This document shows, in pieces, positions 27,430-35,214 of a DNA stretch of 64,000 bases. Every line of letters begins with the position of its first letter. Position 1 is the stretch's first letter. The notes beneath the pieces are model-generated. The model was not told the DNA's origin, searched no databases, and saw only the letters and a program-made list of their open reading frames with translations. The stretch is from Berkelbacteria bacterium GW2011_GWE1_39_12 (GTDB lineage: Bacteria; Patescibacteriota; UBA1384; UBA12157): assembly GCA_001029735.1 (NCBI GenBank), contig CP011213.1, positions 656,298 through 720,297 of the forward strand, written 5' to 3'. The translations under genes were made by a program, and so were the position numbers.

Positions 27430-27758
27430 GGGGCTGTATAGATTCGACGGGAAAAGTTCCTAATAATTTCAAGCCGAGCAGGTTACGAGTCTCGTAAAAT
27501 CCGTGACAAAATCAAACGAAAAACCTTCGTTTACCCCTGCTTTAGCTCTAGCTTAATCGCTTCGGCTAGCAGCGTCTCCTCATTTGTCGACTGAATGAAT
27601 GATACGAGGCGTTACAAATCAGTCTGCTGCTTATTGAGATATCTTTGGTAAATAGGCAAAAGAAAACGAAAGAACAATTTTGCTTCGCAAAATTTAAGCT
27701 TGTCAATGATTATTAATGCTTTTTTTGGACAGGAGTGCAATTCTCCTCAGCTCCACCA
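27430..27758 (+). ncRNA. ssrA: tmRNA (SsrA)
   Basis: 5' GGGGCTG...GATTCGACGGG matches the tmRNA tRNA-like 5' end. Internal tag reading frame ends ...GCT TTA GCT CTA GCT TAA (…PALALA*). 3' T-arm AGGAG-TGCAATT-CTCCT, acceptor CAGCTCC, then ACCA. Confidence 0.8.
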
Positions 27759-27791
27759 AATGAGAATCAGAAAATTTCTGGTTCTTTTTTG
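27759..27791 (+). terminator. tmRNA terminator
   Basis: GAATCAGAAAATTTCTGGTTC hairpin followed by TTTTTT. Confidence 0.55.
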
Positions 27792-27990
27792 TTGCTCGCA
27801 AACCAGATAATAGGGCTTATTTGAGGGGTGCAAACTTTTTCGTGAGAATTTACTATTATTTCGCCCGGAAACAGCAGTTGTTTACACTTTACCCGACTGG
27901 CACGATCAAGTTCCTTCCAGACCATGAGTTTTTGGTCGATAAACTTTAACGAGAAACGAATGAAGGTCTCTATGATTCTACCAATTTATA

Positions 27991-28100
27991 CCATTTCGAC
28001 GATTTTCGACCTTTTTCGACCAATACCGACAATTACCGACAATATCCGAGGTTTTTCGAGGATTTTCCACTATTTTCCATTAAAACCACTGTTTTCCAAT
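27991..28100. repeat. Eleven directly repeated 10-bp units (iteron array, consensus NNTTTTCSAC, grading into DnaA-box-like TTTTCCACT)
   Basis: Units read ccatttcgac, gattttcgac, ctttttcgac, caataccgac, aattaccgac, aatatccgag, gtttttcgag, gattttccac, tattttccat, taaaaccact, gttttccaat, at exactly 10-bp spacing. Confidence 0.7.
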
Positions 28101-28270
28101 GAAATTCAAATTGCATCAATGATCACAAGATCTTCGACACCTGTTTGGCGCCGTGTGCCGATTTGTGCACTCCTTGCAGCGTTGGTCCAACTCATGCTCG
28201 ACAGATACAAGTGCTTGAACTATAATCAATGTAATATTACCTACCTATTTAATTAAACGTGGGGGGGGGA

Positions 28271-28918
28271 ATGATGGATATTGATAGAATATTTTGCGAA
28301 CCCAAATTTTCAAAAGATGAATACATCTCAAAATATGGTGATGGGTATTCTAATTTGTATTTATTAAGAAAAGACATCTGGTGGTGCCGCGGAATCGATC
28401 CAAGTACTAAAACTAAAATATCGAATGATGCCGGCGCTCCATTCGCGGCTTTTTTATTGATCAGGATTCTTTTTAACTACATCGTCCACCTCTCTGGTAC
28501 AGATTACCAAAATTACATAAGAAAATACTTACCAACAGATCTTTCTGCAAAAGAGGCTGAAATTTTAAACCGCCTACGAAATGCACTCGAGCACTTAAGC
28601 TACAACTTAGTATGGACGCCGGACATCAAAAAAGGTGAAAAAGGTAAAATAATTTATTTCGCAGTAACTGAAGAAAATACTGAATCTCTCATGGAAATGA
28701 TAGATGAACAAGAAAATGAAGAAACGTGGATCGTGAATATAGACCAATTACATCAGGCCATTGAATCATCTATAAATATTCTATACAAAGATGTGATCAA
28801 GAATGATCAACTCTCTAAAGATATATTAGCTCTTGCGGGTGCGCATAGCATGCATGTAGTAGAAAAGAAGATTTTATTAGATACAGTAAAAAGCAGAAGT
28901 AAAAGTCATAACATATGA
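28271..28918 (+). CDS. Hypothetical protein with HEPN-type Rx4H motif (Abi_2/AbiD-F-like?), start abutting a G9 tract
   Basis: LNRLRNALEHLSY contains R-x4-H, the HEPN/Abi_2 catalytic motif. A G9 homopolymer at 28261-28269 directly precedes ATG 28271, and an in-frame GTG lies at 28259. Confidence 0.4.
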   Translation: MMDIDRIFCEPKFSKDEYISKYGDGYSNLYLLRKDIWWCRGIDPSTKTKISNDAGAPFAAFLLIRILFNYIVHLSGTDYQNYIRKYLPTDLSAKEAEILNRLRNALEHLSYNLVWTPDIKKGEKGKIIYFAVTEENTESLMEMIDEQENEETWIVNIDQLHQAIESSINILYKDVIKNDQLSKDILALAGAHSMHVVEKKILLDTVKSRSKSHNI

Positions 28919-30121
28919 AATTATTATTAAAACCTATAAATTCCTTTACCTTTCAGGATGTATCTGACTTCTGTTCCGAAGGCTATCTTGAAAATGTCCA
29001 ATTAGACTACAAAAAGGACTTTTCACCAAAAGGTGTCGCAAAGCATTTTGCATCTTTTTCTAATACCAGAGGGGGTCTAATTATATTTGGAGTTGAAGAG
29101 GATGAAAAGACTGGCAAACCTACAAAGTGGGATGGTTTGAACAATGATTGTAAATTTGAAGATCAAATATACCAACGACAAGGAAGGTAAGGTTTTTGTT
29201 TTATTAAGGATTTTTGAGGGAGATAGAACCCCATATTATATTCTTAACGACCCAAATATTTACATCAGAACCGGCAGTATAACAAAAAGATTTGAAGAAA
29301 TTGCACATCCCGATGTTCAAAAAATGCTCTTCGAAAAGAAGAATGAAGCCAAAAAGACATGTAATTTAAACAATGAAATAGCTGCTTCAATTTACGACAA
29401 CAAAATAAACCAGAGCCAGCTTGAATTAGACCGAATGAAAGCTACTGAATTACAAAAACCGGAAGAAGATAGAAAAAAATTGTTTTCCAAAAGATTAGGG
29501 ATTGATGGTGTTTCGATATCTGCCATAACCCTTCAGCCTTATTATCCGGCAAAAAACATGGTTCAGCCAAAAACACTAATGGATGAAATTAACGAATACA
29601 GGGTACTTCTACATCAAGCGCATTACCCACAACAAGAACGAAGTTTTACCCCTATACCAAATGGCATTTTTGCCTTCCATTATAACGATAGGAGTGGCGG
29701 CATAAGATCTGAACAAATATTTACGAACGGATTATTTTGCGACTATTTTGATATATCAGAATACAACCCAGATACAAAAGAAAAAGTATTAGCCATTTCA
29801 CACTTGATCGTGAGGCTAAAATTAATATTACATTCTGCTAGGAAATTTTACGTTAAATATGGTTATCAGGGTGGCCTAACTGGAAATATCAACATCACAA
29901 ATACTGCTGATGCAAGATTGGGCGATATACATAGATTTGATTGGGGTGATTTAGAGCTAACTTTCCTGCCCAGCTTGAACGTTCCATTTGAACTGGACAC
30001 TGTTATCCTAAATGACGATGAGAATCTGAAGTTGTTTCTAAGAGATAGAATCGAAGAGATATATTGGTGTTTTGGACTTGATGTTGTACCAAAAAGCCTC
30101 ATGGACGCATTGCTGGCATAG
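28915..30121 (+). pseudogene. AlbA_2 / Schlafen-like domain protein, disrupted by a frameshift near 29140-29190
   Basis: Frame 1 (28915-29190) encodes ENVQLDYKKDF...VAKHFASFSNTRGGLIIFGVEED (AlbA_2 core). Frame 2 (29144-30121) continues with KIKYTNDKEGKVFVLLRI...YIRTGSITKR, the usual downstream part of the same domain. Confidence 0.55.
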
Positions 30122-30204
30122 TGCTAATCCTTTAAGGGATATTGAAACCGTTGTCTAACTTGTATCTCTCGAATTCGAATGATAGGATCTAGCGCCAGCG
30201 CTTA

Positions 30205-30252
30205 GTTTCCTCAAGGATAGGGTGCAAACTTTTAACAATCAGCTCCACCAGT
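30205..30252 (+). repeat. Degenerate copy of the tmRNA 3' end (att-like) followed by a terminator-like hairpin
   Basis: GGGTGCAAACTTTTAACAATCAGCTCCACCAG compares with tmRNA GGAGTGCAATTCTCCTCAGCTCCACCA. It is followed by AACAGGtcaaaatCCTGTTTTTTTT. Confidence 0.5.
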
Positions 30253-30352
30253 ATCAAAATAACAGGTCAAAATCCTGTTTTTTTTGTATTAAAAAAGGCT
30301 CGCGAGGGGTCGTGATATTCTCACAAGCCTTTTTCGCGAGCCATTAGAATGC

Positions 30353-30745
30353 TCACCTTTTGAAGCCATCGAAATGACTTCCTTTGTGCTTGACGATATT
30401 TGGTGGAAATGCTGAGAGTTCCTCGGCGAAATGAGCAAGCTGTACTTTCTCTGCCTCAATTGCTTTCATTTGCTTGTTCAGTTGTTCGATTTGTAGCTCT
30501 ATGCCCAGTTTTCCAATTTCACTTGAATCAACATGGTCTTCGCATACGCTTCCGATGAACCACTCTTTTCCTTCTGCGTAGAGTAGAATGGCATAAAGTG
30601 GTTGTCCTGGGGTGACGGGCTCTTTACCCACAACGCATCGAATCTTTTTCCAGCCATTGTCGGAAAACCATGGTTCCGAAGGTGCTTTACTTGGACTTAT
30701 GACAATTCGGATTGCCGACTCTGACGTTGTTGAATTACTGTTCAT
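30353..30745 (-). CDS. Hypothetical protein (islet cargo)
   Basis: 130-aa ORF with an RBS and no recognisable motif. Confidence 0.35.
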   Translation of the reverse strand: MNSNSTTSESAIRIVISPSKAPSEPWFSDNGWKKIRCVVGKEPVTPGQPLYAILLYAEGKEWFIGSVCEDHVDSSEIGKLGIELQIEQLNKQMKAIEAEKVQLAHFAEELSAFPPNIVKHKGSHFDGFKR

Positions 30746-30892
30746 TTCCGATCAGCCTCCTAGATGTGCGGTTTGTCTTTTTTAGACACTACATAATAGC
30801 ACATATAAAATTTAAAGTCAATCCTTTCAGTGATAATCATTTAAGGAATGTATCTAATATGTATTGTTCATAATCTAAATACAGAATTTCTC

Positions 30893-30990
30893 TCCATCTT
30901 CTGGTTTCAGCAATGATTTCGTGTAAACTTTTTCCGACCAGCTCCACTTAAATGAGAATCAGAGACCATTTCTGGTTCTTTTTTGTTATT
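30893..30990 (+). repeat. Second downstream copy of the ssrA 3' region including a near-identical terminator
   Basis: ...ATGATTTCGTGTAAACTTTTTCCGACCAGCTCCACTTAAATGAGAATCAGAGACCATTTCTGGTTCTTTTTTG compares with ssrA ...ATGATTATTAATGCTTTTTTTGGACAGG...CAGCTCCACCAAATGAGAATCAGAAAATTTCTGGTTCTTTTTTG. Confidence 0.6.
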
Positions 30991-31040
30991 ACAAATAGTC
31001 GATAGTTAATTATTCCTATAGCCTATGATATGATCGTCTT

Positions 31041-31709
31041 ATGAAACTACTTTTAACCTCAACTGGAATTACCAATAAAACAATCGAAAATAAATTTATC
31101 GAAATGGTCGGCAAACAACCCGAAGAGATGATTGTGGCTTACATTCCAACGGCCGTAAATGTTGCTCGGCCAACGGATAAACGCTGGATTATTAATAATC
31201 TTATTGGTCTCGATAAAATGAAAATCGGAAAAATAGACCTTTTGGATTTCTCTGCGATTCCCCAAGAAATTTGGCTTCCAAGATTAAAACAAGCCGATGT
31301 AATCATGGTTGGTGGCGGAAACCCCTATCATTTGATCTATTCAATGAAAAAAGCTGGTTTAGATAAAGTTCTAAAAGAGCTATTGGAGGAAAAAGTTTAT
31401 GTTGGGTGTAGTGCAGGCTCGGTGATTTTAGGAAAAGATATTGTCACCACTGCCCCTAAAAAATATTGTGAAGAAATCCCTGAATTTGAAGGGGATAAAG
31501 CGTTAGAATATATTGATTTTAGTATTAGGCCACATTTTTATAATCCCGACCGTCCTCAGTACACCGATGAAACAACTCAAGAATTAACAAACAATTTTCA
31601 GTCAACTTTTTATGCCATTGACGACAATTCGGCAGTTGTAATAGATGATGATCAAGTAAACGTGATTTCTGAAGGCAAGTGGAAAAAGTTTGAACCGATA
31701 ACTAAGTAG
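31041..31709 (+). CDS. pepE: Peptidase E (S51 family dipeptidase; Asp-X dipeptidase / cyanophycinase-like)
   Basis: LLLTSTG N-terminus. VIMVGGGNPYHLIYSMKKAGL and VYVGCSAGSVILG align with E. coli PepE IVIVGGGNTFQLL... and LYIGWSAGANLA (catalytic Ser region). Confidence 0.7.
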   Translation: MKLLLTSTGITNKTIENKFIEMVGKQPEEMIVAYIPTAVNVARPTDKRWIINNLIGLDKMKIGKIDLLDFSAIPQEIWLPRLKQADVIMVGGGNPYHLIYSMKKAGLDKVLKELLEEKVYVGCSAGSVILGKDIVTTAPKKYCEEIPEFEGDKALEYIDFSIRPHFYNPDRPQYTDETTQELTNNFQSTFYAIDDNSAVVIDDDQVNVISEGKWKKFEPITK

Positions 31710-31858
31710 CTCTAAATATTTTCAAAAATAGAATCAGAATAAATCTCTGTTTTTTTGTATTATTAAACTCTTTAATATTGACTTATCTTTATTTTTGCCT
31801 TAAAATAAACAGTTCTTGAGTAACAAGAGCGCGTGATTTCGGAACTAGGAGGGTGCAC

Positions 31859-32956
31859 ATGAAAAAACTGCTTTTTATTTACCACGGTGGTACAATCGGT
31901 CAGATTCCGGAAATACGAGAGGGTGGCCGAATTATTCTTGTTGTGCCAGCTGATGGAAGTCAGTTTCGTGAGGTTTGCTTACCAATTATCAGTCAGTATG
32001 ATGACTTCTTTGAAACTACGTTCGAGGTCATTACTACAAAGGATTCGACGAACCTTAATCAGAAAGATTGGGAAAAGCTCATCTTTAGGATAAAGAAGGC
32101 ACAGGATGATGAAGGTTTCGATGCTGTCGCAATTGCACACGGGACGGACACGTTGCCCTATACTGCAACTGCTCTGTCTCTTGCGTTGCATGGAAGAACT
32201 CCTGGTAGAACAGGTCTACGAATTCCCGTTTGCGTCACAGGTGCCCAGAACCCGATTTATGACGAAAAAGGGGATGGGCGCACGAATCTTGCTCGTATGC
32301 TTGAAACTCTCAAGCAGGCGATCATCCTGGGTATTGCTGATGTGATGGTTAACTTCGACAAACGTGTATTGCTTGGTTGTCGGACGCTGAAAGTAAGTGA
32401 GCGACGATATGACGCTATGCAGTCATTGTCTTCGCCGGACGTTGGTGAAATTGATAGCTCAGGTGTCCATCTTAACTCGAGCTTACTTCGCAAAAGAGCA
32501 GATGCAGAAGACAAATTGCTTCTTGCACCGAAGTTCGGTCGTGGTGTGGTCGGCATTGAGCTTGTGCCAGGGCTTGAGCCAAGTCTGATTCTTGGATTTA
32601 TCGCCAATGGTGGTGTGGCTGGGATGGTTCTAAAGTCGCTAGGGGAAGGTAATGTTTGTTGTGAAGGTGAGTTCAGCCTAATCCCAGCAATCAAACGAGC
32701 GACTGAGGAATATATGACGCCGATTTTCATCACCACAAAGTTCGCTGGTGGAAGCTCGGGGGCATGTCATTACGAAACCGGTTACGAAGCCATAAAAGCT
32801 GGTGGCATTGCCTGTTTTGATCATACAGACGTGGCGGTTGATGTGAAGGTGATCTGGTTGATTGGCAATGGCATATGTGCCACTGTGGATGATTTCAAAA
32901 AAGCGATGGCTACAAGCTTCGCTGGTGAAGTTACTCCTCCTACAGAGTTGGTCTGA
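31859..32956 (+). CDS. L-asparaginase (asparaginase/glutaminase family)
   Basis: IYHGGTIG (the TGGTIAG motif with catalytic Thr) and AIAHGTDTL (the HGTDT motif). SD GGAGGG before ATG 31859. Noticeably GC-richer than the flanks. Confidence 0.8.
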   Translation: MKKLLFIYHGGTIGQIPEIREGGRIILVVPADGSQFREVCLPIISQYDDFFETTFEVITTKDSTNLNQKDWEKLIFRIKKAQDDEGFDAVAIAHGTDTLPYTATALSLALHGRTPGRTGLRIPVCVTGAQNPIYDEKGDGRTNLARMLETLKQAIILGIADVMVNFDKRVLLGCRTLKVSERRYDAMQSLSSPDVGEIDSSGVHLNSSLLRKRADAEDKLLLAPKFGRGVVGIELVPGLEPSLILGFIANGGVAGMVLKSLGEGNVCCEGEFSLIPAIKRATEEYMTPIFITTKFAGGSSGACHYETGYEAIKAGGIACFDHTDVAVDVKVIWLIGNGICATVDDFKKAMATSFAGEVTPPTELV

Positions 32957-33085
32957 GATGATCGAACTTACGGGCCCCTCGTTATTGTTATACGAAGGGT
33001 CCTTTTTATATACGAATACATTTATATAACATAGCGCCAATCAAATAAGGGATGCATCTAATCTAAACCGCTCATATTCTGAATG

Positions 33086-33155
33086 CAGGATCTCTCTCCA
33101 GCGCCTGGTTTCGGCGATGATTTCGTGTAAACTTTTCCGACCAGCTCCACCAAAC
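33086..33155 (+). repeat. Third downstream copy of the ssrA 3' region
   Basis: TCTCTCCAGCGCCTGGTTTCGGCGATGATTTCGTGTAAACTTTTCCGACCAGCTCCACCAAA is about 85% identical to 30893-30953. Confidence 0.55.
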
Positions 33156-33407
33156 TTCGCCACAATAGATTGTGGCTTCGCTTGGCGAGCCATATATAAA
33201 AGCAGAAGTTTGCCCAGCGTAGTCCCACGCCGTTACACTCTGTGGTTCATTAGTACTCATCGGGAAGCATTTTTATTTGTATCTTTCGTAATCTGAATAA
33301 AGTATTTTTGTACAGCATGTTTTTATTAATTGAAAATATATTTAATTGTAAAAAGAGCTTTTTTGTGCTATCATCACTGATGGATTCTGAAAAGGAGGAT
33401 TTCCGAT

Positions 33408-33869
33408 ATGGTAAACGAGAAAGAGGGTACGTGTAACATCATTTCGTCCTTTGATCCCGGAATTTGGAGCGACATCCGCAGGGCCAATGAGTACATGACT
33501 CAGTCTGCAATGACACACTTCCTTAATGCCGAAGAAAGAATAGCACTAGCTCAGTTCATCAACGCTATGAGATGTGCATATGTTCGCTGGGAGGGCAACC
33601 CGGTGGAGGAACGTATAGCGGCGCTGAAAGCAATGCGGCTACCATCAGAAGATAATGGTCTGAATACAGTGAAACAAGTTGCACACGATGGGCACAACCC
33701 GTCTGAATTACGGATTATAGCTTTAAACAAACTCTACGAAGCCCAGATAAAGTTTAGTTTCAACGAACGGCCCGCTATTAGATCATTCATTCATGACATT
33801 AGTGTGCATGCATCCGATGATGCCGTTTGCACCGAGGCCCGACGCCTCTACCACCTTCTATCCATATAA
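33408..33869 (+). CDS. Hypothetical protein (GC-richer islet cargo)
   Basis: 153-aa ORF with SD AAAGGAGGA and an extended -10 box, and no recognised motif. Confidence 0.35.
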   Translation: MVNEKEGTCNIISSFDPGIWSDIRRANEYMTQSAMTHFLNAEERIALAQFINAMRCAYVRWEGNPVEERIAALKAMRLPSEDNGLNTVKQVAHDGHNPSELRIIALNKLYEAQIKFSFNERPAIRSFIHDISVHASDDAVCTEARRLYHLLSI

Positions 33870-33879
33870 GTGTCCCTAG

Positions 33880-33911
33880 GTCCCCGGAATGATTACATTC
33901 CGGGTTTTTTA
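33880..33911 (+). terminator. Rho-independent terminator
   Basis: CCCCGGAATGattaCATTCCGGG hairpin followed by TTTTTT. Confidence 0.55.
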
Positions 33912-34074
33912 AATTTTCGATTCGTCGGACTTCGACGAGATAAGGATCTGTTCCGAATCGATTTTGATGTAGACATGCGTGTATCGTCGGCTGTGAAGAT
34001 GTTTGTCAATGAGAGGAATTGGCAAGGGTAATTTGATAATACTAAAAGCATGTAGTTAAAAGTTTTTTTAGCTT

Positions 34075-34125
34075 ATGTTATGATCATCGTATGAAACTAC
34101 TATTAACCTCGACAGATAATTGTTT
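34075..34125 (+). repeat. Direct repeat of the pepE promoter-proximal/5' coding region (about 85% identity to 31021-31075)
   Basis: TAGCTTATGTTATGATCATCGTATGAAACTACTATTAACCTCGACAGATAATT compares with TAGCCTATGATATGATCGTCTTATGAAACTACTTTTAACCTCAACTGGAATT. It encodes MKLLLTSTDNCL* and lies just before rsgA. Confidence 0.55.
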
Positions 34126-34131
34126 GTAATT

Positions 34132-35214
34132 ATGAATATTTCACTTCAAAATTTAGGCTTTGATGAATACTTTGTAACACTCTGTAAAGAACTGCGGATC
34201 GAGCTAGATGCTGTGGCTCGAATCATTGCAGAACATAGGGGACTTTATATTGTCAAAAACCTGAAGGGTGATTTTCAAGCAAAAATTACTGGAAAACAAA
34301 TATTTACCGCATCTTCACGGGAAGACTATCCGGCAGTAGGAGACTGGGTTGTGATTAAAATGGCCGATGATAATCAAGCGATTATCAAACAGATATTGCC
34401 AAGAAAAACCATTCTTAGAAAAACGGTAGTTTCGCGAAAATCTACCGATAAAACAAAGAGCCAAATTATTGCCGCCAATGTTGATATTGCGTTCGTGGTG
34501 GAATCCGTAGACAGAGATTATAGCTTGAACCGTTTTGAAAGATATTTTTCTTTAGCTGAGGATGGAAAAGTTAAGCCCTCAATTATTTTAAACAAAGTGG
34601 ACTTAATTACGAAAGATGAGCTGGAAACTAAAATTGCTGAGATACAAAATCGATTTAAGGATTGCACGGTTGTCCCTACCAGCACAGCAACTCAAGAAGG
34701 CATAGAACTCTTAAAAAACTCACTGTATCCAGGAAAAACTTATTGCTTCCTGGGATCATCAGGAGTTGGTAAATCATCTTTGATCAATATTTTACTTGGT
34801 GAAAAAGTTGCAAAAACAGCAGAGGTCGGCCAGAGTACTGAAAGAGGTAAGCATACGACTACCCATCGCGAAATGTATTTTTTAAGTGGTGGAGGAATTG
34901 TGATCGATAACCCTGGAATGCGTGAAGTCGGTTTGGCTGATTCTACGGAAGGGGTTAAGACAACTTTCAATGAAATTGCAGATTTGGCAAAACAATGCCA
35001 ATTTACGGATTGCACACATATTCATGAATCTGGATGCGCTGTAAAAGAAGCGATAGATTCAGAATTATTCAGTAAGGAAAAGTATGAAAATTATATTCAA
35101 TTGAAAAAAGAAGCAGATCATTTAGAAATGACAAATTATGAAAAAAAGTATAAAGAAAAAAAATTCGGAAAAAGTTTGAAAAATTATCAGAAACGAATAA
35201 AAGATTTCGAATAG
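34132..35214 (+). CDS. rsgA: Ribosome small-subunit-dependent GTPase A (RsgA/YjeQ, circularly permuted GTPase)
   Basis: Permuted G motifs (NKVDL...; GSSGVGKSSLIN; DNPGMREVGL) and C-terminal zinc knuckle CQFTDCTHIHESGCAV. Confidence 0.8.
   Translation: MNISLQNLGFDEYFVTLCKELRIELDAVARIIAEHRGLYIVKNLKGDFQAKITGKQIFTASSREDYPAVGDWVVIKMADDNQAIIKQILPRKTILRKTVVSRKSTDKTKSQIIAANVDIAFVVESVDRDYSLNRFERYFSLAEDGKVKPSIILNKVDLITKDELETKIAEIQNRFKDCTVVPTSTATQEGIELLKNSLYPGKTYCFLGSSGVGKSSLINILLGEKVAKTAEVGQSTERGKHTTTHREMYFLSGGGIVIDNPGMREVGLADSTEGVKTTFNEIADLAKQCQFTDCTHIHESGCAVKEAIDSELFSKEKYENYIQLKKEADHLEMTNYEKKYKEKKFGKSLKNYQKRIKDFE

Follow-up and report, generated by a model that had tools for sequence, protein, structure and literature searches.

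Two overlapping genes beside a bacterial tmRNA gene raise the question of whether the locus encodes one phage defence system, two, or something else. The genes were found in a window of 64,000 nucleotides (the whole stretch of DNA analysed here) from the genome of Berkelbacteria bacterium GW2011_GWE1_39_12. A preliminary description had proposed a partly inactivated toxin/defence pair on a mobile ssrA islet, consisting of a protein related to HEPN or Abi RNases and a frameshifted AlbA_2 gene. We consider it moderately probable that the locus is a decayed ssrA islet with two independent defence candidates, a HEPN-type RNase encoded by ORF1 and a dead Schlafen (pSlfn) gene.

The ssrA islet

The tmRNA (ssrA) gene lies on the forward strand at 27430..27758, where it matches Rfam model RF00023 with 114.7 bits (E = 4.4e-44); ARAGORN did not detect it. 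The 3' end of the gene, CAGCTCCACCA (27748-27758, + strand), forms the left copy of a direct repeat, and a second copy at 30240..30250 (+ strand) delimits the first islet on the right. Exact copies begin at 27748, 30240 and 33142; the stretch 30938-30948 is a near-copy, CAGCTCCACtt. When one mismatch or fewer is allowed, the tmRNA 3'-end pattern has 4 matches in the window, compared to an expectation of 0.33. The terminator-like hairpin that follows the tmRNA gene (27762..27786, + strand) has been duplicated together with the tmRNA end at 30938-30985. The tmRNA gene and the repeats of its 3' end bear out the proposal of a mobile ssrA islet. Of the attributes of tmRNA-targeting islands, border repeats of the tmRNA 3' end are present and an integrase inside the island is absent; none of the ORFs scanned from the tmRNA gene to rsgA (27759-34120) has a recombinase domain. 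The segment 27759-30250, which is identical base for base in five contigs that were assembled independently and come from different samples, would be a decayed integrative islet at the tmRNA 3' end of a Candidatus Berkelbacteria genome, without a recombinase of its own. Its cargo would be two independent single-gene defence candidates, probably co-transcribed. A literature search gave no earlier description of ssrA islets in bacteria of the candidate phyla radiation (CPR).

Several sequence elements accompany the two genes. The iteron array reported beside them is present as an array with a 10-nt period at 27994..28077 (strand not applicable; TRF, 8.4 copies, 74% matches), and no such array was seen beside ORF1 relatives in the other genomes that were looked at. 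A promoter-like sequence, TCGACA-17-TATAAT (28198..28226, + strand), is a consensus match only (11/12) and is located 45 nt 5' of ORF1. It is followed by a G-rich ribosome-binding stretch at 28260-28268, read from the sequence. A terminator-like hairpin with a T-run (30261..30279, + strand) lies 3' of ORF1 and the pSlfn gene, and the two genes are flanked by a 15-nt inverted repeat.

The ORF1 family

ORF1 (28271..28918, + strand; the open reading frame starts at 28259) is intact, encodes 215 amino acids and belongs to an unannotated family with the pattern D35 ... R103-N-x3-H108. The string LNRLRNALEH, to which the preliminary description had drawn attention, does occur in this ORF as residues 99-108 (codons 28565..28594, + strand), a candidate active-site motif with which predicted helix 93-108 ends. 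By itself the string is weak evidence, as we estimate that a protein of this length would contain roughly 0.2 R-x4-H arrangements by chance, but near-total conservation across the family indicates that more than chance is involved. In an alignment of 64 family sequences, R103 is present in 63 and H108 in all 64, and position 104, directly after the arginine, holds N (53), H (5) or D (3) in 61/64. Position 35, which lies in predicted helix 28-39, is acidic in 61 of the 64 (59 D, 2 E). These three, D35, R103 and H108, are the only near-universal polar residues. C39 is kept in 58/64, with A, S, G, T or L in the remaining six.

The family is rare; a profile search recovered 77 clusters among 1.84 billion representatives. 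The five close homologues are each full length and share 53-61% identity with ORF1, and this close subfamily has so far been found only in genomes assigned to CPR lineages (Berkelbacteria, Saccharibacteria) and on unassigned metagenome contigs. A tblastn search with ORF1 of annotated plasmid and phage collections gave no match, and a literature search gave no earlier description of the family. Giant proteins with very strong profile matches proved to be irrelevant: the matches are ADGRF3_N repeats of animal adhesion GPCRs and lack the R..H motif.

Close relatives of ORF1 are often appended on the 3' side of restriction-modification or nuclease modules. The gene order in a Saccharibacteria element is HTH, methylase, ResIII helicase, HEPN_AbiU2, ORF1 relative, wHTH, MvaI/BcnI nuclease and serine recombinase, and a scan of GTDB genomes for ORF1 relatives returned a single locus, which was this same element. 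A second close relative has a methylase-Mrr fusion on its 5' side, another follows a protein whose helicase-C and TnsA-like matches are weak and below threshold, and another follows an HD-domain protein. The four distant family members that were looked up are stand-alone genes, three of them surrounded by housekeeping genes and the fourth close to a DNA methylase, and the link to defence therefore holds for the close subfamily only.

Is ORF1 a HEPN ribonuclease?

HEPN proteins are recognized by an Rx4-6H motif with N, D or H after the arginine, positioned where the end of helix 3 passes into a loop, and by an acidic residue upstream (PMC3710099). ORF1 has the Rx4-6H motif and the polar residue after R, and in the predicted structure the motif is found at the end of a helix. 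In the AF2 model, which has a pLDDT of 93.7, helix 93-108 terminates at H108. The residues RNALEH, on whose helical setting and conservation the first HEPN assignment had depended, are helical and very highly conserved. These features suggest that ORF1 is a divergent HEPN-type, metal-independent endoribonuclease. The enzyme would probably be dimeric and would cut host or phage RNA upon infection, in a defence of the abortive-infection or growth-arrest kind; both the RNase chemistry and the defence role are inferred.

At the level of profiles, ORF1 resembled none of the established HEPN families. Searches of Pfam, NCBIfam, PADLOC and PHROGs with ORF1 returned noise only (JAB, E = 0.011; MtrH, E = 0.033; phrog_2109, E = 0.071). 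Pfam HEPN/Abi profiles matched neither the 64 family members nor the family consensus, and no other family recurred; a HepT-like match in one member (E = 0.043) is at chance level for 64 scans. Abi_2 (PF07751) did not match ORF1 at E <= 1 or its 64 relatives at E <= 0.1. Sequence searches of the PDB with the family profile and consensus gave only the nucleophosmin C-terminal domain and similar weak matches, and hhalign assigned a probability of 0.2% to an alignment of the family with the AbiU2 protein encoded beside one homologue. Foldseek found no HEPN structure and no other match to the model in the PDB (best E = 0.11, TM 0.15), so that HEPN membership is unproven, and since neither profiles nor Foldseek gave a HEPN match, the label "HEPN" for ORF1 derives only from the motif and its position in the secondary structure. 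Of the original HEPN/Abi reading, the motif, its conservation and its place on the helix have stood, and the expected Abi_2 or HEPN profile match and HEPN-like solved structure have not materialized.

Alternatively, ORF1 would be an enzyme or regulator of undescribed, non-HEPN fold that had arrived at R-N-x3-H by convergence, for example a D35/C39/H108 hydrolase. No HEPN profile matches any of the 64 members or the consensus, the confident model resembles no solved structure, and its sole fair match, in BFVD, is an unnamed viral protein (A0A0H4TI24; E = 2.3e-3, TM 0.42/0.51). Moreover, the model surrounds the motif with extra N- and C-terminal helices and with an inserted sheet of three strands that follows it and is non-canonical for HEPN. 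The strong conservation of C39 also fits; however, its replacement in six members makes it unlikely to be catalytic, and the cysteine hydrolase was ranked low. Foldseek is weak on small helical bundles. HEPN families, furthermore, are mutually undetectable by plain profile searches (PMC3710099), whereas N, H or D after the arginine, an invariant histidine, an upstream acidic residue and a helix-end position are specific HEPN hallmarks. We regard the non-HEPN alternative as possible, though on the unlikely side. A more far-reaching form of it is doubtful: ORF1 would found a structurally new, non-HEPN enzyme family whose R-[NHD]-x3-H site evolved independently, and would act alone in defence, carried on ssrA islets and downstream of restriction modules.

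It is very improbable that ORF1 is instead a regulator, excision factor or replication factor of the islet that binds the 10-nt array. The gene does lie about 200 nt 3' of the array, on an islet that has no other candidate maintenance gene. Its relatives, however, have no such arrays beside them, and are found either on their own in chromosomes or directly 3' of restriction-modification, helicase/nuclease-like or HD-domain genes; Pfam detected no DNA-binding domain in ORF1 or its family, and conservation is centred on the R/H/D triad, a pattern typical of enzymes.

A Schlafen gene inactivated by a deletion

The second gene (28915-30121) is split between two frames. Its 5' fragment (28915..29190, + strand; 91 aa) contains DYKKDF...FSNTRGGLIIFGVEED and E26-x4-D31-x-K33, and matches PF04326 (SLFN_AlbA_2) with E = 3.9e-7 and 31.1 bits, above the Pfam gathering cutoff of 25.3. 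The 3' fragment (29144..30121, + strand; 325 aa) is in the +1 frame and carries the end of the Slfn domain with YIRTGSITKR, a long coiled-coil helix and a C-terminal domain. When the fragments are joined, PF04326 extends over 116/118 model positions (E = 1.7e-9, 38.7 bits). The AlbA_2 assignment is therefore upheld for the N-terminal fragment and the joined protein alike.

The break was located by comparison with P0007, an intact homologue that is 67% identical. DNA and protein alignments reveal a deletion of 50 nt with its junction at 29173..29174 (+ strand), which shifts the frame by +1 and removes about 17 conserved codons (QSAQNVEPYPNFEIHTT), and with them one of the core strands of the Slfn domain. 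The junction is identical in 5 assemblies, and because the islet is identical base for base in these independent assemblies, the deletion is real and the Schlafen gene is therefore a pseudogene. Sequencing error is ruled out as the source of the frame break by this identity, and programmed frameshifting is ruled out by the nature of the break, a 50-nt deletion rather than a slippery site. The frameshift originally reported is thus a genuine feature of the population.

Prokaryotic Schlafen nucleases (pSlfns) are single-protein anti-phage tRNases that defend against phage by tRNA cleavage (Perez Taboada et al., Nat Microbiol 2026, PMC13056530). Their catalytic motif is Ex4(E/D)xK, and tRNA cleavage and phage protection are on record for RorSlfn5 and EcoSlfn7 only (PMC13056530). 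The gene in the window encodes E26-NVQL-D31-Y-K33, and in the family alignment E26 is found in 46/47 sequences, D/E31 in 47/47 and K33 in 47/47. The family profile matches SLFN14 in the PDB (E = 2.3e-5), and the P0007 model (pLDDT 90.5; coiled coil 149-196, alpha/beta domain 218-418) matches the SLFN13 N-domain (E = 3.3e-4), SLFN14 (E = 5e-4), 2kyy and the SAMD9 tRNase. The C-terminal alpha/beta domain, a putative sensor, matched no Pfam family and no PDB structure. One homologue occurs with type I/IIG restriction-modification genes and an OLD-family nuclease, and another beside a faint AbiTii match; the defence context first proposed is thereby borne out for close relatives of both genes.

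By homology to the tested pSlfns, the ancestral protein was probably a tRNase with a defence function, in which an N-terminal Mn-dependent tRNase domain with Ex4DxK would have been joined by a coiled coil to a C-terminal sensor. The 50-nt deletion within the nuclease domain has inactivated the gene in the Berkelbacteria lineage. The view of AlbA_2 as an accessory nucleic-acid binder is not supported: Ex4DxK is present, and in proteins of this architecture the domain is itself the nuclease effector (PMC13056530).

Two genes rather than a pair

The TGA of ORF1 overlaps the ATG of the next gene (ATGA at 28915-28918). This 4-nt overlap, which suggests translational coupling, a single promoter-like and a single terminator-like site that bracket both genes, and the inverted repeat around them might indicate one toxin-antitoxin or sensor-effector system that bypasses the break by programmed +1 frameshifting, but such a system is scarcely credible given that the deletion has removed conserved residues and a core strand, that the 3' neighbour of close ORF1 relatives is always different (a wHTH gene, a 109-aa ORF, a 51-aa Zn-ribbon ORF), that intact AlbA_2 homologues have no adjoining ORF1 relative, and that ORF1 remains intact in a population whose supposed partner is dead. 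An AlbA_2 neighbour was found in 0/8 distinct ORF1-family contexts, and an ORF1 relative in 0/2 contexts of AlbA_2 homologues. The proposed toxin/defence pair is not sustained by these counts, and the best reading of the sequences is that ORF1 and pSlfn are two separate defence genes and not a toxin/antitoxin pair.

Comparison with known defence systems

The Schlafen gene shares with characterized pSlfns an N-terminal PF04326 domain, Ex4DxK, similarity to the nuclease lobe of SLFN13/14, a one-polypeptide architecture whose C-terminal domain varies, and homologues in defence islands. It differs from annotated pSlfns in its unmatched C-terminal domain, which places it among the 17% "unannotated fusions" (PMC13056530), and from known pSlfns in the long coiled-coil linker between domains and in that the window copy is a pseudogene. 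The CRISPR-associated Schlafen (Cash, PMC13462974) is related to proteins of this kind.

The HEPN Abi proteins (Abi_2/AbiD-AbiF PF07751, AbiU2 PF18734, AbiV; PMC3710099) resemble ORF1 in having R-[NHD]-x3-H at a helix end and an upstream acidic residue, and in being mostly helical products of a single gene of about 200 aa. Close ORF1 relatives likewise occupy restriction/defence neighbourhoods, one of them directly 3' of an AbiU2 gene. Profile similarity and a structural match are absent, however, and ORF1 has a beta-sheet insert and extra terminal helices. PrrC and RloC, HEPN anticodon nucleases linked to restriction-modification, offer another parallel, as close ORF1 relatives are putative HEPN RNases directly behind restriction-modification genes, an arrangement that suggests they act as a back-up should restriction be blocked. 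Unlike PrrC and RloC, ORF1 lacks an N-terminal domain of the ATPase/ABC type, and no restriction-modification genes adjoin it in the window. HEPN-MNT (HepT/MntA) type II/VII toxin-antitoxin systems also combine a small Rx4H protein with an overlapping adjacent gene, but ORF1 has neither a nucleotidyltransferase nor any other conserved partner.

Implications

The main outcome is a corrected annotation, in which two independent genes replace a toxin/antitoxin pair; no major concept is altered. The Schlafen gene is a dated, unambiguous case of a pSlfn defence gene that has decayed on a mobile islet, and it points to a pSlfn subfamily with an uncharacterised C-terminal domain that is a putative sensor. 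ORF1, with a confident model and no solved relative, is a cheap target for structural and biochemical study. Immunity has been little explored in CPR bacteria, the source of its closest members. Should ORF1 prove to be an active RNase, the HEPN-type defence repertoire would gain a family that has been missed by Pfam, NCBIfam, PADLOC and PHROGs.

Layout of the two genes

Every feature named in the preliminary description was found where it had been placed, including ORF1 (28271-28918, 215 aa) with its motif LNRLRNALEH, which spans residues 99-108. ORF1 and the Schlafen-type gene that follows it (gene 2, 28915-30121) are co-oriented and overlap by 4 nt, the stop codon of the first and the start of the second sharing the ATGA at 28915-28918. 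Both lie on an integrase-less islet beside ssrA, ORF1 intact and gene 2 internally deleted. A promoter-like site (TCGACA-17-TATAAT) is located 45 nt upstream of ORF1 and a terminator-like hairpin follows gene 2; these are consensus matches only (11/12 for the former). A 15-nt inverted repeat (28198-28212 and 30158-30172, 14/15 complementary) exactly flanks the two genes, its left arm overlapping the -35 hexamer of the promoter-like site. This repeat could be a chance occurrence or could mark the ends of a two-gene cassette.

A broken Schlafen nuclease

Gene 2 is very probably the pseudogene of a prokaryotic Schlafen nuclease (pSlfn). Its first part, ORF 28915-29190 (91 aa), matches PF04326 (SLFN_AlbA_2) above the gathering score, and ORF 29144-30121 (325 aa) encodes the rest of the protein, shifted to the +1 frame. 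Joined, the two cover the whole PF04326 model (E 1.7e-9), which upholds the original AlbA_2/Schlafen assignment, and match 49 database proteins, almost all of them uninterrupted and 415-445 aa long. The closest intact homologue, P0007 (418 aa), is 67% identical over its full length. Protein alignment showed that about 17 residues (QSAQNVEPYPNFEIHTT in P0007) are missing from the window protein exactly at the frame break, and DNA alignment placed a single 50-nt gap in the window at the junction 29173/29174. The frame shifts because 50 is not a multiple of three. Five contigs from independent assemblies of different samples agree at every base of the complete first islet (27759-30250), across the deletion junction as well, which shows the lesion to be real and fixed in the population. 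The reported frameshift is a 50-nt deletion; a homopolymer sequencing error and a slippery site are both ruled out as its cause.

In the N-terminal domain of the AlphaFold model of P0007 (pLDDT 90.5), the residues lost correspond to strand 98-102 together with the last part of helix 81-90. Foldseek matched this domain to the SLFN13 N-domain (E 3.3e-4), SLFN14, the RecG-related AlbA_2 domain 2kyy and the SAMD9 tRNase, and the gene-2 family profile matches SLFN14 by sequence (E 2.3e-5). In 2026, pSlfns were shown to be single-protein anti-phage effectors, in which an N-terminal Slfn domain with a catalytic Ex4(E/D)xK motif performs Mn-dependent tRNA cleavage (PMC13056530). The C-terminal sensor domains attached to it vary widely, 17% being unannotated, and some 70% of pSlfn genes have a known defence gene within 10 kb (PMC13056530). 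Like the tested pSlfns, gene 2 carries the motif in its N-terminal Slfn domain, as E26-NVQL-D31-Y-K33, and among 47 relatives the catalytic positions are E in 46, D or E in 47 and K in 47. The Slfn domain gives way in the P0007 model to a long helix (149-196), then to an alpha/beta domain (218-418) for which Pfam and the PDB yielded no match; this is the putative, uncharacterised C-terminal sensor of the subfamily. One intact homologue comes after a type I/IIG restriction-modification set and an OLD-family nuclease, and another adjoins a gene with a faint AbiTii match; both contexts looked up are defence-type settings. Gene 2 is an already known kind of protein, inactivated here. Its AlbA_2 domain had been taken for an accessory nucleic-acid binder; in the pSlfn architecture that domain is itself the effector. 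The ancestral gene 2 would have cleaved tRNA when triggered by phage, as tested pSlfns do, with the C-terminal domain as the probable sensor.

Integration remnants downstream of ssrA

A complete tmRNA gene (27430-27758, + strand; Rfam, 114.7 bits) precedes the islet; ARAGORN missed it, its output for the window consisting of nine tRNAs. Exact copies of the tmRNA's 3'-terminal 11 bases (CAGCTCCACCA) lie at 30240-30250 and 33142-33152, and a near-copy, CAGCTCCACtt, at 30938-30948 has a duplicated tmRNA terminator behind it (27748-27795 being similar to 30938-30985). The window holds four copies of the tmRNA end, one with the terminator duplicate; a pattern search permitting one mismatch gave 4 matches versus 0.33 expected. 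These repeated ends indicate that short integrated segments are stacked downstream of ssrA, and ORF1 and gene 2 belong to the first of these, 27759-30250. From the tmRNA gene to the core gene rsgA (34120-35214), none of the ORFs shows a recombinase domain. The islets are remnants, and the region as a whole looks like several of them stacked. An NCBI protein from a Candidatus Berkelbacteria genome is identical to the 325-aa ORF of gene 2, and the same DNA was found again in groundwater metagenome assemblies of project PRJNA268031.

A 98-nt repeat (30835-30932 and 33039-33136, 80% identity) lies ahead of two tmRNA-end copies. Between two copies are genes for a peptidase S51 (PepE-like) and a type I asparaginase (31041-32956), and another part of the PepE 5' region recurs at 34032-34113. 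The GC content of the asparaginase region, 0.47-0.49, exceeds that around it (about 0.37), and the region may therefore be metabolic cargo brought in from elsewhere. A 130-aa ORF (30353-30745, - strand), annotated as a gene in every assembly of the locus, lies in the short stretch that separates the tmRNA-end copies at 30250 and 30949; it matches no family in Pfam, NCBIfam, PADLOC or PHROGs. Ahead of ORF1, the sequence first described as an iteron array repeats with a 10-nt period over 8.4 copies (27994-28077), and its unit drifts from TTTCGAC through TACCGAC and TCCGAGG to TTTCCAC; it could represent recombinase or excisionase arm sites, iterons or regulator binding sites.

The ORF1 family and its HEPN-like signature

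ORF1 had no significant match in Pfam, NCBIfam, PADLOC or PHROGs. A word-indexed search returned only four non-identical relatives (54-61% identical, all 214-225 aa), and when 1.84 billion representatives were searched exhaustively with a profile, 77 clusters emerged at E <= 1e-3, most of them 180-250 aa proteins aligned over nearly their full length. Conservation was counted in a 64-sequence alignment. H108 is present in 64/64, R103 and L102 each in 63/64, C39 in 58/64 (A, S, G, T or L in the remainder) and E165 in 49/64; position 35 is D in 59 and E in 2, and residue 104, after the arginine, is N in 53, H in 5 and D in 3. HEPN proteins carry the motif Rx4-6H, in which the R is followed by N, D or H; it sits where helix-3 ends and passes into the loop, and many HEPN families have an additional conserved acidic residue upstream (PMC3710099). 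In the AlphaFold model of ORF1 (pLDDT 93.7, pTM 0.86), R103-H108 form the C-terminal end of helix 93-108, D35 lies within helix 28-39, and a three-stranded sheet (127-156) stands between the motif and the next long helix (157-177).

The HEPN/Abi reading of the preliminary description held in part: the RNALEH residues are helical in the model and conserved, so that its own refuting condition, a motif that is non-helical or varies, does not apply, but no HEPN or Abi model matched any of the 64 family members or the family consensus. A HepT-like match of one member (E 0.043) is at chance level over 64 scans. Also negative were hhalign against an AbiU2 protein encoded beside an ORF1 homologue, a search of PDB sequences with the ORF1 profile and consensus (nothing relevant), and Foldseek against solved structures (best E 0.11, TM 0.15); the only fair structural match was an unnamed viral protein in BFVD (E 2.3e-3, TM 0.42/0.51). 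With neither a HEPN profile nor a solved structure matching it, we label ORF1 HEPN-like, by motif and predicted secondary-structure position, and not a proven member. Whether it is truly a HEPN domain is close to an even call, and a defence-related enzyme using the R/H pair is moderately probable. The alternative, a new fold with a convergent motif, is favoured by the missing matches and opposed by the conserved, helix-borne motif, and we consider it rather unlikely. At a minimum, ORF1 represents a new family that belongs to, or borders on, a known kind of defence RNase.

Very strong matches to the helix-hairpin part of the ORF1 profile, positions 82-123, came from giant adhesion GPCRs of animals that are rich in ADGRF3_N repeats (P0058, P0062 and P0071; E down to 4e-38, summed over 25 repeats); these proteins lack the R..H motif. 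The nucleophosmin C-terminal domain gave a similar weak match; a shared helical-hairpin sequence pattern is probably responsible. P0093, a distant member of 450 aa, combines an ORF1-like domain with a C-terminal region weakly matching the 8xMP octameric membrane protein family (E 5.5e-5, sub-cutoff), and may be a membrane-effector fusion.

Gene neighbourhoods

Close relatives of ORF1 occur in four distinct contexts, all with nucleic-acid enzymes directly upstream. One, a Candidatus Saccharibacteria element (L002/L023, 1151-10003) adjoining a large serine recombinase, is a compact defence island with the order HTH, N6/N4 methylase, ResIII/SWI2-SNF2 helicase, HEPN_AbiU2, ORF1 relative, small wHTH (DUF4143-like), MvaI/BcnI nuclease and LexA-fused methylase. 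The wHTH gene is also listed as TM-wHTH, and the closing LexA/S24-fused DNA methylase is an unusual fusion. Elsewhere the upstream gene encodes a methylase-Mrr fusion, a protein whose helicase-C and TnsA-like endonuclease matches are weak and below threshold, or an HD-domain protein. Four distant family members are stand-alone genes, one near a methylase and three among ordinary metabolic genes. The neighbourhoods therefore support a defence role for the close subfamily, and much less so for the whole family.

Each context has its own downstream neighbour (a wHTH gene, a 109-aa ORF or a 51-aa zinc-ribbon ORF); the Schlafen gene holds that place in the window alone, and a fixed partner for the ORF1 family is not supported. 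In this population ORF1 has stayed intact beside a dead Schlafen gene, which speaks against an obligatory antitoxin role for the Schlafen protein. The proposal of a partly inactivated toxin/defence pair is not supported. ORF1 might instead be a maintenance or regulatory factor of the islet that binds the 10-nt array, but no such array was seen beside its relatives elsewhere and its conservation pattern is enzyme-like, which makes this highly improbable. Still less credible is a real two-gene system relying on programmed frameshifting, given the 50-nt deletion and the lack of conserved pairing.

Proposed function and significance

As a HEPN-like enzyme, ORF1 would be a metal-independent endoribonuclease in which R103 and H108, together with N104 and D35, may make up a HEPN-type site that probably spans a homodimer. 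The enzyme would stay silent until infection and then cleave RNA, leading to growth arrest or abortive infection. PrrC and RloC back up adjacent restriction systems, and by analogy ORF1 relatives may do the same. The annotation of the locus is corrected, since a toxin/defence pair formed by ORF1 and gene 2 is not supported. The ORF1 family escapes current annotation libraries, and ORF1 is a cheap, well-defined target: its model is confident, mutation could be directed at three residues, and intact homologues exist.
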